Shown piece by piece: positions 9,795 through 29,766 of a stretch of 64,000 nucleotides of DNA; within the stretch, counting starts at the first letter, position 1, and each line of letters starts with the position of its first letter. A program made the translations under genes and the position numbers. This DNA comes from Candidatus Bathyarchaeia archaeon (lineage in GTDB: Archaea; Thermoproteota; Bathyarchaeia; Bathyarchaeales; Bathycorpusculaceae), in NCBI GenBank assembly GCA_050015395.1, contig JBEKBM010000002.1, forward strand, positions 1-64,000, read 5' to 3'. Below the pieces are notes generated by a model. The model saw nothing but the letters and a program-made list of their open reading frames with translations, was not told the DNA's origin and did not search any database.

Positions 9795-10532
9795 CTACGA
9801 GTCTTTCTTCATTTTCATCAGTTTAACTTCCAGAATGCCATTGCGATAGCTATATTCAATAGCCTTCTTTTTGACAGGAGTTGGAAGCTTCACTTCTTTA
9901 AAGTACGTTTGCGCTGAGGTATCCGTGCTTATCGTAAGAGTATTATCCTCTACATTCAAGCTTATCTCGTTCTCTTCAACGCCAGGCAATTCAGCCATCA
10001 CCCGCAGGTAATCTTCTTCTTCAAACACGTCAACAATTGGCTCCCTTTCCTTTATCGACCCAACTGTAGACGGCTTTGGCGCACTCGTTTTTGGAGCCTC
10101 TTTATTTGGTCTAGTAATATGCAACGCGCTCACAGGCGCAGCTGCATGAGATCCCATTATCGGGCGAGAACTCACATGCACATCAATTACGCCCCCTTTT
10201 CCAACGTTAATTCTCTTCTGGTAACTCTGAGACTTCTCCGTTAACTTCGCCAAGTCGTTGATTAATCCAACTAATCCTTCAGATTTTTCGTCTTGAACCT
10301 TGTTTGACACGCCAAATATGCCGAATCCGGAGTCAAGAAGCCGCGAGACATCGTTGAACATGCCGCCTATATCCTCAGTTTCACCCGTTTTTTCCTTGCC
10401 CTTAATTTGCTGCCTCATCTCTTCAACTGATTGCTTTAGCTGCTCGATTTCTTTTCCTTTCTGTGCAATCTCTTTCTTTAGTTGTTCAAGATCTTGCTTT
10501 TCCGCCACTTTTTGCCCTTCTTCTTTCGCCAT
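9795..10532 (-). CDS. Hsp20/alpha-crystallin protein with N-terminal coiled coil
   Basis: REPIVDVFEE...AELPGV...YRNGILEVKL. Confidence 0.88.
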   Translation of the reverse strand: MAKEEGQKVAEKQDLEQLKKEIAQKGKEIEQLKQSVEEMRQQIKGKEKTGETEDIGGMFNDVSRLLDSGFGIFGVSNKVQDEKSEGLVGLINDLAKLTEKSQSYQKRINVGKGGVIDVHVSSRPIMGSHAAAPVSALHITRPNKEAPKTSAPKPSTVGSIKEREPIVDVFEEEDYLRVMAELPGVEENEISLNVEDNTLTISTDTSAQTYFKEVKLPTPVKKKAIEYSYRNGILEVKLMKMKKDS

Positions 10533-10550
10533 TTTTTCACCTCCTCAATT

Positions 10551-11516
10551 TTACTTAAGCGCGATCTGTTTTTCTAATAGAGTTAGATACGTCTGGGGAT
10601 TCGCGAAATACTCTGCTTTAAGCGGTGGATAATTTTCCACGGCAAACCTTACCCCTTCAATTCCAAACTTCTCTAAAACAGCCTTTGCAAGCGCGTAGCC
10701 CAAGTAATATGAGACTCCTTTAATTATCTGAGAACTTCTGAGGATGTCTTTAGCCAGTTTCTCTTTATCCAGTGCTTGGTGACTCATTCGGTCCTTTTCT
10801 ACCGCGCTTTCGCCTTTTCTTGTATTCTCTATGTGGAACAGAAGTTCCATGCATTTTGAGCAGCCTGTCTGTAGCTCTTTCTCTAAAGAAGCCACTTCCG
10901 TTTCATAGCGCAAGCCCATGTTGCATAAGACTTGAAGTGCTATAGCCTCGCAACATCCTTCTTTGAAAACAGTCTTGAAAACGGCGTCTACGTATATGTT
11001 TAAAAGTTCCTGGTTCTTATTTGCATTTCTATCCTTCATGCCTTCGAGATATAGCTTAGCTGCCGATTGTAGGGATGACTTTGCGGGTTGCGAGATAATG
11101 GTGAATAGCAGTTTTTCTGAGAGCTCATGAGCACATACAGAAAGCATTTTTGTCGGGTAGTTTATCGCCATTTCTTCGCTTAAATATAACGCGTCATCTG
11201 GTGGGTTATAAAAAGCTAAATTTTCGAAAAATTGTGTCCCTAGATTTTTAGAGAGGGCTTCACTGACTTGTTTCCATTCAATGCTGTTGCGTATAATGCC
11301 GTTTTCTTCGAGATCATTTTGTATCCGTTGGATTAACTGATTGAGCATTGCTGAGTGCTTCAATATTTTGACATCGGTAAAGTAAGGAAAATTATAATGA
11401 TATAATTCCATCATTCTTTCGTGGATACTTTTGAGAGTTTGCTCGACTTCTTTGATTTTTTTGCTGTCTCTTTGAAAGTTTGCAGTTATGCCTTCTTTCG
11501 CGGCATGTGCTTTCAT
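10551..11516 (-). CDS. Hypothetical zincin-like protein
   Basis: AFYNP...CAHELSE...KEGCCE...YYLGY pattern; in tandem with cdc48 and hsp20. Confidence 0.55.
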   Translation of the reverse strand: MKAHAAKEGITANFQRDSKKIKEVEQTLKSIHERMMELYHYNFPYFTDVKILKHSAMLNQLIQRIQNDLEENGIIRNSIEWKQVSEALSKNLGTQFFENLAFYNPPDDALYLSEEMAINYPTKMLSVCAHELSEKLLFTIISQPAKSSLQSAAKLYLEGMKDRNANKNQELLNIYVDAVFKTVFKEGCCEAIALQVLCNMGLRYETEVASLEKELQTGCSKCMELLFHIENTRKGESAVEKDRMSHQALDKEKLAKDILRSSQIIKGVSYYLGYALAKAVLEKFGIEGVRFAVENYPPLKAEYFANPQTYLTLLEKQIALK

Positions 11517-11525
11517 GGGCTATGT

Positions 11526-13739
11526 TCATCCCGCATTGTTTTCAACTATTTTTTTGTGTTCCTTCACTTTTTTGACAGCTTCTTGCAAGTCTTCCATAGT
11601 TACTTCAAGTCTTTGTGGTTTTGTGGTCTCTTGGTCTGTGCCACTGTTTACAAATCTTCTAATTGTTCGCATTGTAGCCTCTCTGCAAATTGCTTCTATT
11701 TCTGCTCCTGTGTATCCTTCGGTTTCTCCAGCCAATTCTATGAGGGAAACATTTTTTGCGAGATGGCTCCTTGAAGTATGGATTTTGAAAATCTCTAACC
11801 TTGCCGCCTCGTCTGGAGGTGGAATTTGAATTATAAGGTCAAATCTGCCGGGTCTCAGCAGAGCTGGGTCGATTATGTCGATGCGGTTTGTTGCTGCTAA
11901 AATGAAGACTCCGCGGAGTTCCTCGAGTCCGTCCATTTCCGTTAGAAGCTGGCTTATGACTCTTTCTGAAACGTGGGAATCGGTTGTTCCGCTCCCGCGT
12001 TTGGGAGCTAACGAATCTAGTTCATCAAAGAAGATGACGCACGGCGCTGTTTGTTTTGCCTTCCTGAAGATTTCCCTTACGCCCTTCTCGGATTCGCCTA
12101 CGAATTTGCTCATGAGCGCCGGACCCTTGACATGGATGAAGTTTGCTTCGCTTTCTTTAGCCAACGCTTTCGCCAATAGAGTTTTTCCTGTTCCCGGAGG
12201 TCCACCGAGTAAAGTGCCTTTTGGCGGTTTTGCCCCTGCCTCTTCGAAAACATCAGCGTATTTTAAGGGCCATTCAATAGCCTCCCTGAGCGCCTGTTTC
12301 ACCTCGTAAAGACCGCCTATGTCGTTCCAAGTGACGTTAGGTGTTTCGATAAGCACTTCCCTCAGCGCAGAAGGGTCTACAAACCTTAACGCATCTATGA
12401 AATCCTCCATTGTTACTACGAGTTTGTTGAGCACTTCTGCTGTGATAAATTCGGTTTCGAAGTCTATTTCGGGCAAAACCCGTCTCAACGCTTTCATGGC
12501 TGCTTCCTTGCAAAGTTCTGTGATGTCGGCGCCGGTGAATCCGTGGGTTATGTTGGCGAGTTTATGCAGATCTACTTCATGGGTGAGCGGCATTCCTCTG
12601 GTGTGAATCTGAAGGATTTCGAACCGTCCTTCTCTGTCTGGGATTCCTATCTCGATTTCTCGGTCAAACCTTCCTCCTCTTCTTAGGGCGGGGTCAACCG
12701 CGTTGGGTCGGTTTGTCGCTCCGATGACTACTATTTGTCCTCTAGGTTCTAGTCCATCCATCAAAGTCAGCAGTTGGGATACGACTCTTTTTTCGACTTC
12801 TCCTGTTACTTCCTCCCTCTTAGGGGCTATGGCATCAATTTCGTCTATGAAGATTATGCACGGTTTGTTTTGTTCAGCCTCGTTGAATATTTCTCTTAAG
12901 CGGGCCTCAGACTCTCCATAATACTTTCCATGGATCTCAGCGCCGCTGATACTTATGAAAGTGGCGAAGGTTTCGTTTGCCACTGCTTTAGCGATGAGCG
13001 TTTTTCCTGTGCCGGGTGGACCATGTAACAGGACGCCCCTGGGCGGTTCTATGCCGAGTCGGTCAAACACTTCTGGGTGCCGAAGTGGAAGTTCTATCAT
13101 TTCTCTTATTCTCTGGATTTGCTCGCGGACCCCACCGACATCTTCATAGGTCGTACCAATTTTTCTTTCAGTTTCCATTGCCTTTTCCCGTATTATTATT
13201 TCTGTTGTGGAGTGCACTATTACGGCGGTGCTGTTCGGCTTGATACGGGCTACGACGAAGGAAGCATTTGTATCTAAAAGGTTCAGCCTCACTCGGTCTC
13301 CCTCAACAAGCGGCAGGCCTTCCAAAAGTCTCCTCGCATACTCTGTGTGTTTTTCTCCTCTAAGCCGTGGTTGATTTTGCTCTATGGGGGCTAATACAAC
13401 TCTTTGGGCTTTTTCAGCGTTGATCCTTCCGATGCATGCGTTGTCGCCAATTCCAACGACCGCGTTGTTTCTTATTATCCCGTCGATTTGAATGACGTCT
13501 TTGCCTCTGTTTTCTGGGTAGGCAGGCATTACTTTCGCGGCTGTTCTTTTCTTTCCGACTATTTGAATGATATCGCCTGTTTGTATATCCATTTTTTTCA
13601 TGTTTTCTGGATCTATTCTGGCTATGCCTCTGCCGAAGTCTCTCTGTGAGGCTTCAGCTACGCGGAGTGTTGAGAGATTTGGTGTGTTTGTGTGTTCTGA
13701 CGTATGTGTGTCTCTTTCTGATTGAGTGATTGAGTGCAT
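11526..13739 (-). CDS. cdc48: CDC48/VAT AAA+ ATPase
   Basis: N-domain plus two AAA modules (GPPGTGKT twice, [23 protein letters not shown]). Confidence 0.96.
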
Positions 13740-13751
13740 AACCTTTAGTTA

Positions 13752-28973: not shown

Positions 28974-28998
28974 AACACCCTTTTAGGATGCACGTAGG

Positions 28999-29397
28999 TT
29001 AAGAAATTTCTACGCGGGTTTTTATGAAGTTATTCATTATTTGGAAAGATAAGTTATAAGCGGTGAATTTTTTTTCGAATATTTCTTTTCCTTTAGGGGT
29101 CAAACAGTAGATTGTTTTTCCTTTGTCAAAGGTTGGTTCTATCAGTTTATTTTCCTCTAAGAGGTGGAGTTGAGGATATAGGGAAGCGGGGCTGAGCAAA
29201 ATACCGAATTCTCTGTGGATGGTAGCCAAAATTTTGTAGCCGTGCATGGACCGCCCATTCAACAGGGCTAAAATTACTATATCTAAAAAAGTCTTGACTT
29301 GCCTTTCAATAATCCGCTCATCGAGCAGTACATCTTTTTCAATAACTTTCAAGTTTGTTCTCTCCAATATGGACTTTACGATAAAACAAAACTTCAT
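28999..29397 (-). CDS. PadR-family regulator
   Basis: LDIVILALL...HGYKI...FGILLSPASLYP.L..LEE...YCLTPKG. Confidence 0.85.
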   Translation of the reverse strand: MKFCFIVKSILERTNLKVIEKDVLLDERIIERQVKTFLDIVILALLNGRSMHGYKILATIHREFGILLSPASLYPQLHLLEENKLIEPTFDKGKTIYCLTPKGKEIFEKKFTAYNLSFQIMNNFIKTRVEIS

Positions 29398-29441
29398 GTA
29401 TCAAAAGTCTTCTCGGTTTTTGACGCAAAACCTGTTGGCAT

Positions 29442-29518
29442 TACTTTTTAGCGTCACGTTGGATGCTTTTTAGATACTTTTTAGCGTAACATTGGATACT
29501 TTTTAGCGTCATGTTGAA
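29442..29518. repeat. Three 22-bp direct repeats plus a half unit
   Basis: TACTTTTTAGCGTCACGTTGGA, TGCTTTTTAGA, TACTTTTTAGCGTAACATTGGA, TACTTTTTAGCGTCATGTTGAA. Confidence 0.85.
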
Positions 29519-29589
29519 CCGTGCTTCATAATGCTTTTTGTGAGGTATAAGAAGTTGTGACTGTCCTGTCACAATCACATGCAAATCGA

Positions 29590-29766
29590 CCCCACACAGA
29601 GGCTACACAGCATCTGTTTACGACAAAGTCTAAGGGGCAAGGTTTTGGTTTAGCTGTGGTTAAGCGTATGACTGAAGCTTTAGGCGGCACCGTAACGTTT
29701 GAAAGCCAACAGGGCAAAGGCACCAAATTCATAATACGTTTGCCCACCCCAAGAGATAAACGGTAA
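29590..29766 (+). pseudogene. Histidine kinase HATPase C-terminal remnant
   Basis: LFTTKSKGQGFGLAVVKR...GG...FES..GKGT.F.I.LP, nearly the same as the end of 1482-3926; rest of gene missing. Confidence 0.85.

Follow-up and report, generated by a model that had tools for sequence, protein, structure and literature searches.

The window analyzed here comprises the first 64 kb (64,000 nucleotides) of contig C2 of a Bathyarchaeia genome (G000; 2.59 Mb in 42 contigs). Between the pdaD and cdc6 genes it carries a genomic island, retained over positions 9726-29579 and interrupted by a later insert of 3.7 kb. The island is probably a laterally acquired member of a Bathyarchaeia-wide type, in which a gas vesicle (gvp) gene cluster travels with its own proteostasis set. 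Its genes were identified from an open reading frame (ORF) listing combined with Pfam and NCBIfam profile scans, and every item named for this region in a first-pass annotation was found in its place, apart from the identity of a GvpC-like protein. The view of that annotation that chaperone machinery is built into the island is borne out by two observations: the genes for CDC48, a Phr-like regulator, Hsp20s, DnaK and a J domain keep their synteny with gvp even between deeply diverged loci, and within the genus a 321-aa protein encoded next to CDC48 has the same distribution as gvp, namely seven genomes.

Proteostasis genes of the island

DnaK, the J domain, CDC48 and the Hsp20s of the first-pass annotation are all matched by Pfam or NCBIfam profiles. 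The J domain forms the C-terminal part of a GvpL/F fusion protein (25438-26430, + strand; Pfam GvpL_GvpF and DnaJ, the latter with 51 bits against a cut-off of 27.8) and contains the HPD motif at residues 279-281. Across 40 diverse members of the fusion family H279 and D281 are invariant, while P280 is present in at least 90%. The next gene (26440-28377, + strand) encodes the island DnaK (Hsp70), which scores 658 bits with NCBIfam DnaK NF001413 (cut-off 648); residues 5-585 align to solved DnaK, and the protein is full length, with nucleotide-binding and substrate-binding domains and intact motifs. A J domain and DnaK are a textbook pair. The island copy is the second DnaK of the genome, as a host DnaK (49% identical) is encoded on contig C33, where its gene adjoins a dnaJ-like gene and is preceded by a 178-aa ORF. 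Host DnaKs share 63-94% identity among themselves, whereas island DnaKs share just 42-49% with the host protein. One carrier of the same family (G143, 100% complete) encodes an island-type DnaK only, 49% identical to the host DnaK of G000, and the island may be the source of the sole Hsp70 of that cell.

The CDC48/VAT-type double AAA+ ATPase (11526-13739, - strand) matches NCBIfam CDC48 with 1015 bits (cut-off 803) and retains its two Walker A and two Walker B motifs. It too is a second copy, since a host paralogue (58% identical) is encoded on contig C21. Two genes for small heat shock proteins (sHsps) lie nearby: (i) 9795-10532 (- strand), encoding a protein with a C-terminal Hsp20 domain and a long N-terminal extension (Pfam HSP20, E 1.8e-7; NCBIfam archaeal Hsp20, E 1.6e-28), whose orthologue adjoins the gene of the 321-aa protein in six islands of the genus, and (ii) 14458-15042 (- strand; NCBIfam Hsp20, E 1.5e-23), which is directly next to gvpA in the related loci L015-L018, L024 and L027-L030, and inverted in L025.

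The 321-aa protein (10551-11516, - strand) is island-specific, carries the invariant motifs CAHELxEKL and FKEGxCE, and has no Pfam or NCBIfam match. Its AlphaFold2 (AF2) model (pLDDT 75) yielded no Foldseek match against the PDB at E <= 0.001. A wide VIA-align comparison returned 3cmn_A (Z 14.6 over 245 residues), M1 aminopeptidases (Z ~10) and thermolysin (Z 8.2). Zinc metallopeptidases or putative Zn peptidases account for 44 of the 50 structures listed, and the other six are two TFIID proteins, two YbeY metal-dependent hydrolases and two putative lipoproteins. On the basis of this model the protein is predicted to adopt a zincin fold. Its gene, which lies ~10 kb from the fusion gene, occurs in 7 of 120 genus genomes, precisely those that carry gvp.

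Conservation of the gene set across Bathyarchaeia

Synteny was examined by tblastn over 17 related Bathyarchaeia loci and four further loci. The 17 loci, taken from a species-representative collection, derive from metagenome-assembled genomes (MAGs) of Bathyarchaeota/Bathyarchaeia, BA2 among them, with one labelled Micrarchaeota, which supports the lineage that the first-pass annotation had given as probable. The dnaK gene lies directly downstream of the J-domain fusion gene in 17/17 of these loci and in 4/4 of the further ones. Neighbors of the other flank (cdc48, or arsR-hsp20) are found beside the gvp cluster in 11/17 loci, and also in L060; cdc48 itself is visible in ten, and in an eleventh its neighbors stand at the edge. 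Where a locus extends far enough, the arrangement cdc48(-), Phr-like regulator(+), hsp20(-) in most cases directly adjoins gvpA, while in L022 an arsR-cdc48-(321-aa gene)-hsp20 block is placed at the opposite end of the cluster. A distant family shows the same gene order, with fusion proteins 31-34% and DnaKs 51-53% identical to those of the window, and the whole cdc48 module in one locus.

In the most similar island, that of genome G098, the genes of the window align over ~0.97-1.0 of their length, the exceptions being gvpG (0.81) and the product of 19683-19895 (0.83), and the island ORFs of the window contain no stops. Judged by this synteny, the chaperone genes belong to the conserved content of the island. 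An unrelated heat shock locus, made up of CDC48, the Phr-like regulator and Hsp20 and separate from gvp, was considered and rejected, because these genes are directly beside gvpA in relatives and the zincin-fold gene co-occurs with gvp. One SPRUCE MAG contains two divergent islands (contigs L016 and L028; fusion proteins 72% and 56% identical to that of the window), which differ in the gene order around gvpM; the MAG either has two islands or mixes several strains.

The same architecture is thus widespread in public MAGs, BA2 included, as a synteny survey of the kind suggested in the first-pass annotation reveals. On the point raised there, whether it is also widely described, a full-text literature search found no description of a chaperone-bearing gvp architecture in Bathyarchaeia, though supplements, which lay outside the search, might list gvp genes. 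The heliorhodopsin of Bathyarchaeota has already been published. The gvp-chaperone island architecture is undescribed in the literature searched.

Gas vesicle genes

The gvp set, described in the first-pass annotation as apparently complete, was recovered for gvpA, gvpN, gvpO, three gvpF/L genes, gvpG, gvpJ, an H-like gene, gvpK and gvpM; the C-like identity is not supported, for want of a GvpC family match. GvpA, GvpN, GvpL, DnaK and CDC48 all score above NCBI curated cut-offs, and the GvpG, GvpK, GvpO and Gas_vesicle Pfam matches are likewise above theirs. The whole genome contains three genes with a Gas_vesicle domain, all of them inside the island.

The cluster begins with gvpA (19001-19231, + strand), encoding the major shell protein (NCBIfam 128 bits, cut-off 100), which aligns to PDB entries 8gbs and 7r1c. 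The usual GvpC position is occupied by a gene (19263-19625, + strand) for a 120-aa conserved protein with orthologues in 11 related loci and no match to a GvpC family, or any other significant match, in Pfam and NCBIfam. GvpC is not universal among gas vesicle clusters. Then follow (i) a gene (19683-19895, + strand) for a small basic conserved protein of ~54-61 aa in relatives, with orthologues in 12 related loci and in family f24; (ii) gvpN (20099-21184, + strand), encoding an AAA+ protein (TIGR02640, 338 bits, cut-off 267) with an intact Walker A motif (GPTGCGKT); (iii) gvpO (21187-21474, + strand; Pfam GvpO, 64.9 bits); (iv) the first gvpF/L paralogue (22346-23068, + strand; Pfam GvpL_GvpF, E 2e-43); and (v) gvpG (22999-23364, + strand; Pfam GvpG, 34.5 bits, cut-off 30.6). 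Relatives cover just ~0.8 of the gvpG ORF, and its true start probably lies downstream of the ORF start.

The second half of the cluster encodes (i) a GvpJ-like protein (23406-23792, + strand; NCBIfam halo GvpJ, E 2.8e-29, below the cut-off) with a C-terminal CxxC...CxxC zinc ribbon (CPQC, CPWC); (ii) a GvpH-like sHsp-domain protein (23789-24325, + strand; NCBIfam archaeal Hsp20, E 1.8e-11 over residues 100-173), present in 16 related loci; (iii) GvpK (24316-24630, + strand; Pfam GvpK, 67 bits); (iv) GvpL (24632-25441, + strand; NCBIfam GvpL, 224 bits, cut-off 200); and, beyond the fusion and dnaK genes, (v) a GvpM-like protein fused to a PH/GLUE-like domain (28371-28973, + strand; Pfam Gas_vesicle and Vps36/bPH; NCBIfam GvpM, E 7e-27, below the cut-off). 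With the J-domain fusion (25438-26430), the paralogue at 22346-23068 and GvpL at 24632-25441, the island encodes three PF06386 (GvpL/F) proteins. Neither GvpD nor GvpE was found among the island ORFs in the family scans.

The core of GvpA, N, O, F/L, G, J, K and M and an Hsp20-like GvpH is common to the island and to haloarchaeal and bacterial gvp clusters (Halobacterium p-vac/c-vac, Anabaena, Bacillus megaterium). The island differs from these in having KaiC-like-PadR, PadR and Phr-like regulators where GvpD/GvpE and GvpC were not found. Its GvpA shares 70% identity with that of a Haladaptatus halobius plasmid and 63% with that of plasmid pOA238_160 of Octadecabacter arcticus, and its GvpN is 45% identical to the O. 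arcticus protein. DnaK, a J domain and CDC48, all encoded by the island, are not in the annotation of the gvp clusters of the H. halobius plasmid and pOA238_160, and no GvpD is annotated on the Haladaptatus plasmid either.

Related clusters beyond Bathyarchaeia

The fusion protein was searched with HMMER against 1.84 billion representatives (50% identity), which gave 154 matches at E <= 1e-30. Among the best 150 of these, 138 combine a GvpL part with a J domain, and HPD is present in 135 of these. One group, ~30% identical to the fusion of the window, carries Omnitrophica, Schekmanbacteria and Nitrospirae MAG names. These bacterial-type clusters, for which the literature searched has no name, resemble the island in possessing the GvpL/F-J fusion, CDC48 and Hsp20. 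CDC48 ends <400 nt upstream of the fusion gene in 45 of the 54 loci with enough sequence and is 55-62% identical to the island protein; Hsp20 is encoded upstream of the fusion in 31/35. They differ from the island in the position of CDC48 directly upstream of the fusion, in the low identity of the fusion itself and in the absence of dnaK, found in 0/80 metagenome loci. In one of them (L125:1861-2277) a 138-aa protein consisting of a DnaJ cysteine-rich zinc-finger domain only is encoded between gvpN and the hsp20-cdc48-fusion genes; here two proteins of the cluster seem to share the modules of DnaJ between them. A tblastn search of PLSDB with the fusion matched five plasmids, none of them with a J domain or DnaK.

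In an unrooted CDC48 tree, four Bathyarchaeia and three bacterial-type gvp-linked sequences are separated by a branch with 95/96 support from nine host or paralogue sequences. A motif filter had kept three bacterial sequences from the 80 loci and dropped the island copy of G341. The CDC48s of the bacterial-type clusters thereby group with that of the island.

A J domain on a structure-specific protein is also known from Mycoplasma TopJ; NF037946 is a weak match among those of the J domain of the fusion. By analogy, a J domain on a structure-dedicated protein would recruit Hsp70 locally. Homology between TopJ and the fusion is confined to the J domain, and the clients of the fusion would be gas vesicle proteins.

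These comparisons bear on the idea that a generic heat shock locus (Phr/HSR1-CDC48-Hsp20 plus DnaK) merely lies beside gvp, with no specific vesicle role. In the archaeal heat shock regulon, Phr (Pyrococcus) or HSR1 (Archaeoglobus) is associated with an AAA+/CDC48 gene and hsp20, and the island agrees with that arrangement in having a winged helix-turn-helix (wHTH) gene divergent from cdc48, hsp20 alongside and Phr as the best NCBIfam match of the wHTH protein. The idea gains further from the bacterial-type clusters without dnaK, and from BA2 and L019, which lack cdc48 in the range retrieved. It is nevertheless improbable. The island set departs from the regulon in being an extra copy, confined to gvp carriers and accompanied by the zincin-fold protein, and its regulator scores 84.6 bits against a cut-off of 320. 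Moreover, 138 of the best 150 representatives of the family have the J domain joined to GvpL/F in one protein, dnaK comes after the fusion gene in 21/21 Bathyarchaeia loci, the zincin-fold gene is present in 7/7 gvp carriers among 120 genomes, separate host copies of DnaK and CDC48 exist, and the gvp-linked CDC48s group together across domains.

Insertion site and probable lateral movement

The insertion site was compared by DNA searches with both flanks in 120 genus genomes. The pdaD region (window ~8670-9470) abuts the cdc6 region (window ~29823-30004 onward) in G076, G094, G003, G046 and G095, as well as in the gvp-bearing G115 and G117; in G076, G094 and G003, which lack gvp, the positions equivalent to window ~9441-9474 are joined to ~29823-30004. 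In two other gvp carriers, G078 and G098, the two regions are 81 and 570 bp apart, respectively. The island of G098 is located on the same contig, ~500 kb from this empty site, and those of G115 and G117 are on contigs other than the one with the empty site.

Gas vesicle genes are rare in this lineage: PF00741 was detected in 2/41 relatives, and the full-length J-domain fusion in 7/120 genus genomes and 7/401 class genomes. Together with the empty site in relatives and the other chromosomal places in other carriers, this agrees with the first-pass annotation, which regarded the cluster as horizontally acquired. The island of G098, at its different locus, is 84-88% identical in nucleotide sequence to the window over 9802-15128 and 18828-29471, while three pieces of the flanks are 73-78% and pdaD is 86% identical. 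Taken alone, this rate argument is weak, as between G000 and G098 the island DnaKs are 83% and the host DnaKs 93% identical in protein sequence. The host DnaKs of G117 and G098 are 94% and 93% identical to that of G000, and their fusion proteins 63% and 80%. Such incongruence of identities, combined with the differing insertion sites, points to lateral movement of the island within the class.

The right end of the island is incomplete in the window. In G019 window position 9725 is joined to 28956, so that padR is kept and the rest of the gvp island is gone; between padR and cdc6 this genome encodes a response regulator and two kinases, of PAS type (916 aa) and GAF-PAS type (802 aa), in this order. 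A PAS kinase homologue also follows padR in G091. The gene padR was tried as the outer limit of a simple insertion, and this was rejected because G019 retains padR, the response regulator and two kinases at the site. G019 is best read as a deletion derivative of the island, and the original insert would therefore have measured at least 26 kb. Relative to G019, a deletion has removed 6.5 kb from the right side of the island in the window, and its joint is at 29580-29614. This loss explains the histidine kinase remnant recognized in the first-pass annotation, a 69-aa 3' fragment of a GAF-PAS histidine kinase gene (29557-29766, + strand; HATPase_c profile positions 65-110 of 111) that is followed by cdc6.

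No tRNA gene was found in the window and no integrase among the ORFs scanned. Convincing att repeats were not seen either; the sole candidate was a direct repeat of 12 nt, located ~20 nt from the G019 junction. The pdaD-cdc6 site holds other DNA in some relatives (7.5 kb in G019, contig C25; ~11 kb in G016, contig C3), and may be a hotspot where insertions occur close to what is presumed to be the replication origin. At 1482-3926 (- strand), 6 kb to the left of the island, a PAS-GAF-PAS histidine kinase is encoded in full length, and the remnant at 29557-29766 resembles many kinase C-termini elsewhere in the genome.

Source genome and soundness of the assembly

The genome is 98.9% complete with 3.3% contamination. 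A misassembly or misbinning that placed an island from another organism in this contig would account for the tetranucleotide profile of the island, which is at the 5th percentile among the 20-kb windows of the genome. Such an artefact is extremely unlikely: both flanks are typical of the genome and are matched in 119 genus genomes, G019 independently displays the same flank-padR and kinase-cdc6 junctions, and six further genus genomes carry the island. Independent support for the integrity of the island thus comes from the sequences of related genomes.

The gvp core was found, with at least 0.99 of the sampled words, in 24 peat/wetland metagenome runs from 23 studies, which may belong to a single campaign and may include the source of the assembly. 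Logan contigs from four peat/wetland runs tile 9300-29299, the listed pieces without differences and at near-even depth. The left host-island junction is bridged in 4/4 of these runs, which answers the proposal of the first-pass annotation that read coverage be checked across the island edges, with the proviso that these may be the source runs. The tiling demonstrates internal consistency; it may stem from the same source reads and hence is not independent support. The assembly at the island is sound. In X9 and X14 a contig joins 9534 to 28879, skipping 19.3 kb, with 30 nt on one side and two variant letters (9486 and 9498), a weak hint that a G019-like island-less form coexists in the same habitats.

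Regulatory genes

The two PadR-type regulators and the HSR1-like regulator of the first-pass annotation were all identified, the last with Phr as its best match, far below the cut-off. This HSR1-like protein is an ArsR-type wHTH protein (13810-14442, + strand; Pfam HTH_5) encoded divergently from cdc48, with CDC48 (AAA+) and hsp20 genes as neighbors, and it is conserved beside cdc48 in related islands. The match to NCBIfam Phr_regulator (E 6.3e-24) covers the N-terminal 90 residues only.

The first PadR-type protein (21503-22345, + strand; 280 aa), conserved in 16 related loci, combines a degenerate KaiC/RecA-like (MEDS-like) N-terminal domain devoid of a Walker A motif with a PadR wHTH domain (Pfam PadR, weak MEDS). 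In Foldseek searches with its AF2 model (pLDDT 70.6) the N-terminal domain corresponds to KaiC and FlaH, and the C-terminal domain to PadR proteins. The KaiC-like domain may resemble GvpD. The second, padR (28999-29397, - strand; Pfam PadR), is the terminal gene of the island and is 91.5% identical in nucleotide sequence to the G019 copy. It adjoins gvpM or dnaK and ends the island in 15/17 related loci, the other two (L023 and L026) stopping inside dnaK. Between padR and the kinase remnant a 22-nt motif is present in three direct copies (29445-29521; starts at 29445, 29478 and 29500), and these copies upstream of padR are a possible PadR operator.

Proposed role of the proteostasis set

The combination of a naturally occurring, conserved GvpL/F-J fusion with a dedicated Hsp70, CDC48 and sHsps leads to a concrete assembly hypothesis that can be tested by mutation. 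It bears on how the extremely hydrophobic GvpA stays soluble and enters the growing vesicle, and on what GvpF, L, G, J and K contribute. The GvpL/F part of the fusion would sit in the vesicle-nucleating complex or bind the hydrophobic shell proteins GvpA, J and M, and its J domain would switch on the ATPase of the island DnaK at the vesicle site, so that Hsp70 would keep shell subunits assembly-competent and limit aggregation. The three sHsp-domain proteins would act as holdases, while the CDC48 unfoldase and the zincin-fold protein would extract misassembled or collapsed shell protein and dispose of or recycle it. Control of the gene set would be exerted by the Phr-like, KaiC-like-PadR and PadR regulators and, in the ancestral island, also by the response regulator and the PAS/GAF kinases deleted here. 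Passages of PMC12848028 report that heterologous expression of gas vesicles causes proteotoxic stress and that the assembly factors are chaperone-like, and the proposed mechanism fits this proteotoxicity. For engineering, these passages would make chaperone-carrying clusters a source of design rules.

A broader proposal, which we put forward tentatively and which may well prove wrong, is that uncultured bacteria and archaea possess a widespread class of gvp clusters, so far undescribed, whose shell assembly depends on Hsp70 and CDC48, with J-GvpL/F recruiting Hsp70 to the nascent vesicle, and CDC48 and the sHsps, along with the zincin-fold partner in Bathyarchaeia, remodeling or recycling shell protein. 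The Bathyarchaeia clusters would bring a dnaK along because archaeal hosts cannot be relied on to supply Hsp70 (cf. G143). If this is true, such clusters are self-sufficient modules for transfer between domains. From an ecological viewpoint, ~2% of the species sampled among peat/wetland Bathyarchaeia carry laterally moving flotation genes.

Several findings weigh against these interpretations. Since dnaK is found in 0/80 bacterial-type loci, a dedicated Hsp70 is no general requirement, and the CDC48 tree is unrooted, with just three bacterial sequences. In BA2 and L019 cdc48 was not seen within the range retrieved. The scan of the island ORFs revealed no exchange factor of the GrpE type, and consequently the island DnaK would need a host factor or none. 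The zincin-fold protein has an invariant HELxE (HExxE) in place of the HExxH zinc motif, and for this reason it may be no protease. The window copy lacks the response regulator and both kinases, and the 3.7-kb insert lies in the hsp20-gvpA intergenic region, so regulation is possibly impaired. The island of G117 (G117:C9:395852-398586; L017, L073, L074) is decaying, with dnaK split in two frames and a TGA inside the fusion gene. No RNA runs are listed among the 24 peat/wetland runs, and gas vesicles have so far not been seen in the Bathyarchaeia lineage.

Some of these points also suit the possibility that the intact cluster serves a role other than flotation in water-logged peat, or is a silent relic here. 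A non-flotation role of gvp products has been proposed for soil actinomycetes. The peat/wetland habitat of the 24 runs in 23 studies (possibly one campaign, possibly the source), the lost sensor kinases, the insertion in the promoter region, and the deletion of the island in G019 and its decay in G117 are all in keeping with this reading. We consider it rather unlikely in view of the near-full-length ORFs without stops described above (~0.97-1.0 of length relative to G098, with gvpG at 0.81 and the 19683-19895 product at 0.83), the intact catalytic motifs, the retention of ~173 bp of sequence ahead of gvpA and of 86 bp ahead of hsp20, and the absence of differences among the listed contig pieces from four runs. 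The favored interpretation remains a gvp cluster with its own proteostasis genes.

Heliorhodopsin insert

The heliorhodopsin (HeR) reported in the first-pass annotation is indeed encoded within the 20 kb of the island (17023-17853, + strand; Pfam PF18761, 262 bits, cut-off 26.7) and is full length by alignment with orthologues. It lies on a transposon-like insert of 3.7 kb (15129-18827) that is absent from the island of G098, in which the equivalents of window 15128 and 18828 abut with a 3-nt alignment overlap, only suggestive of a target duplication. The insert is bounded by 11-bp perfect terminal inverted repeats (15127-15137 and 18817-18827). One end of the insertion sequence (IS) is duplicated as a 225-bp direct repeat (16002-16226 and 18612-18836; 86% identical).

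Besides HeR, the insert contains genes missing from the list of the first-pass annotation, as was the 321-aa zincin-fold protein: (i) a DDE transposase gene (15312-16130, - strand; Pfam DDE_Tnp_4 and HTH_Tnp_4), of which no second copy was found elsewhere in the genome; (ii) a passenger gene for a fasciclin-domain protein (16469-16885, + strand; Pfam Fasciclin, E 3.6e-42), 95% identical to a gene beside HeR in G127; and (iii) a 5' fragment of an ABC-transporter ATPase gene (18011-18700, + strand; Pfam ABC_tran profile positions 2-126 of 137), which the duplicated IS end truncates. Alignment with the G127 orthologue of the ATPase is limited to residues 8-204, and the 3' end is overlapped by an N-terminal fragment of a transposase.

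The HeR frame is open from 17008 and includes no ATG, GTG or TTG before 17254. The orthologous start position is an ATA codon (17023-17025), 7 nt after GGAGG. Five orthologues start with ATG (three), TTG (one) and ATC (one; G108:C6, L049, otherwise intact). The ATA and ATC could be two independent near-cognate starts or could mark early decay.

The first-pass annotation suggested a coupling of buoyancy to light, in which HeR would sense light and control, or cooperate with, the adjacent gvp genes. The location of HeR on the strand of gvpA, 1.1 kb ahead of that gene, would suit this, as would the transcription of HeR genes of some Bathyarchaeota in mangrove sediment and their presumed sensory function, set out in passages of Pan et al. 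(2020; PMC7110647). Gas vesicles have 0 occurrences in that article. The present HeR gene differs from those of Bathyarchaeota treated there in its ATA start and in its residence on a transposon-like insert within a gvp island. The comparative data do not support light-buoyancy coupling, which is very unlikely. The insert with its IS terminal repeats is missing from the closest island, that of G098, and from all 21 others examined; HeR is near gvp in 0/21 related islands, is present in 40/120 genus genomes, is on contigs other than that of the island in G098 and G091, and has no match in the gvp carriers G115, G117 and G078. The fasciclin-HeR-ABC order also recurs in G127 without gvp, and the ATA start codon of the present copy likewise speaks against the coupling. 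HeR is not part of the conserved island; with the fasciclin gene and the ABC fragment it is a passenger of a later, IS-bounded insertion between hsp20 and gvpA.

A 3' remnant of an HeR gene is present on another contig of the same genome (G000:C13:2595-2739; 145 nt, 92% identical in nucleotide sequence and 98% over 44 aa), and this may be the former native locus.

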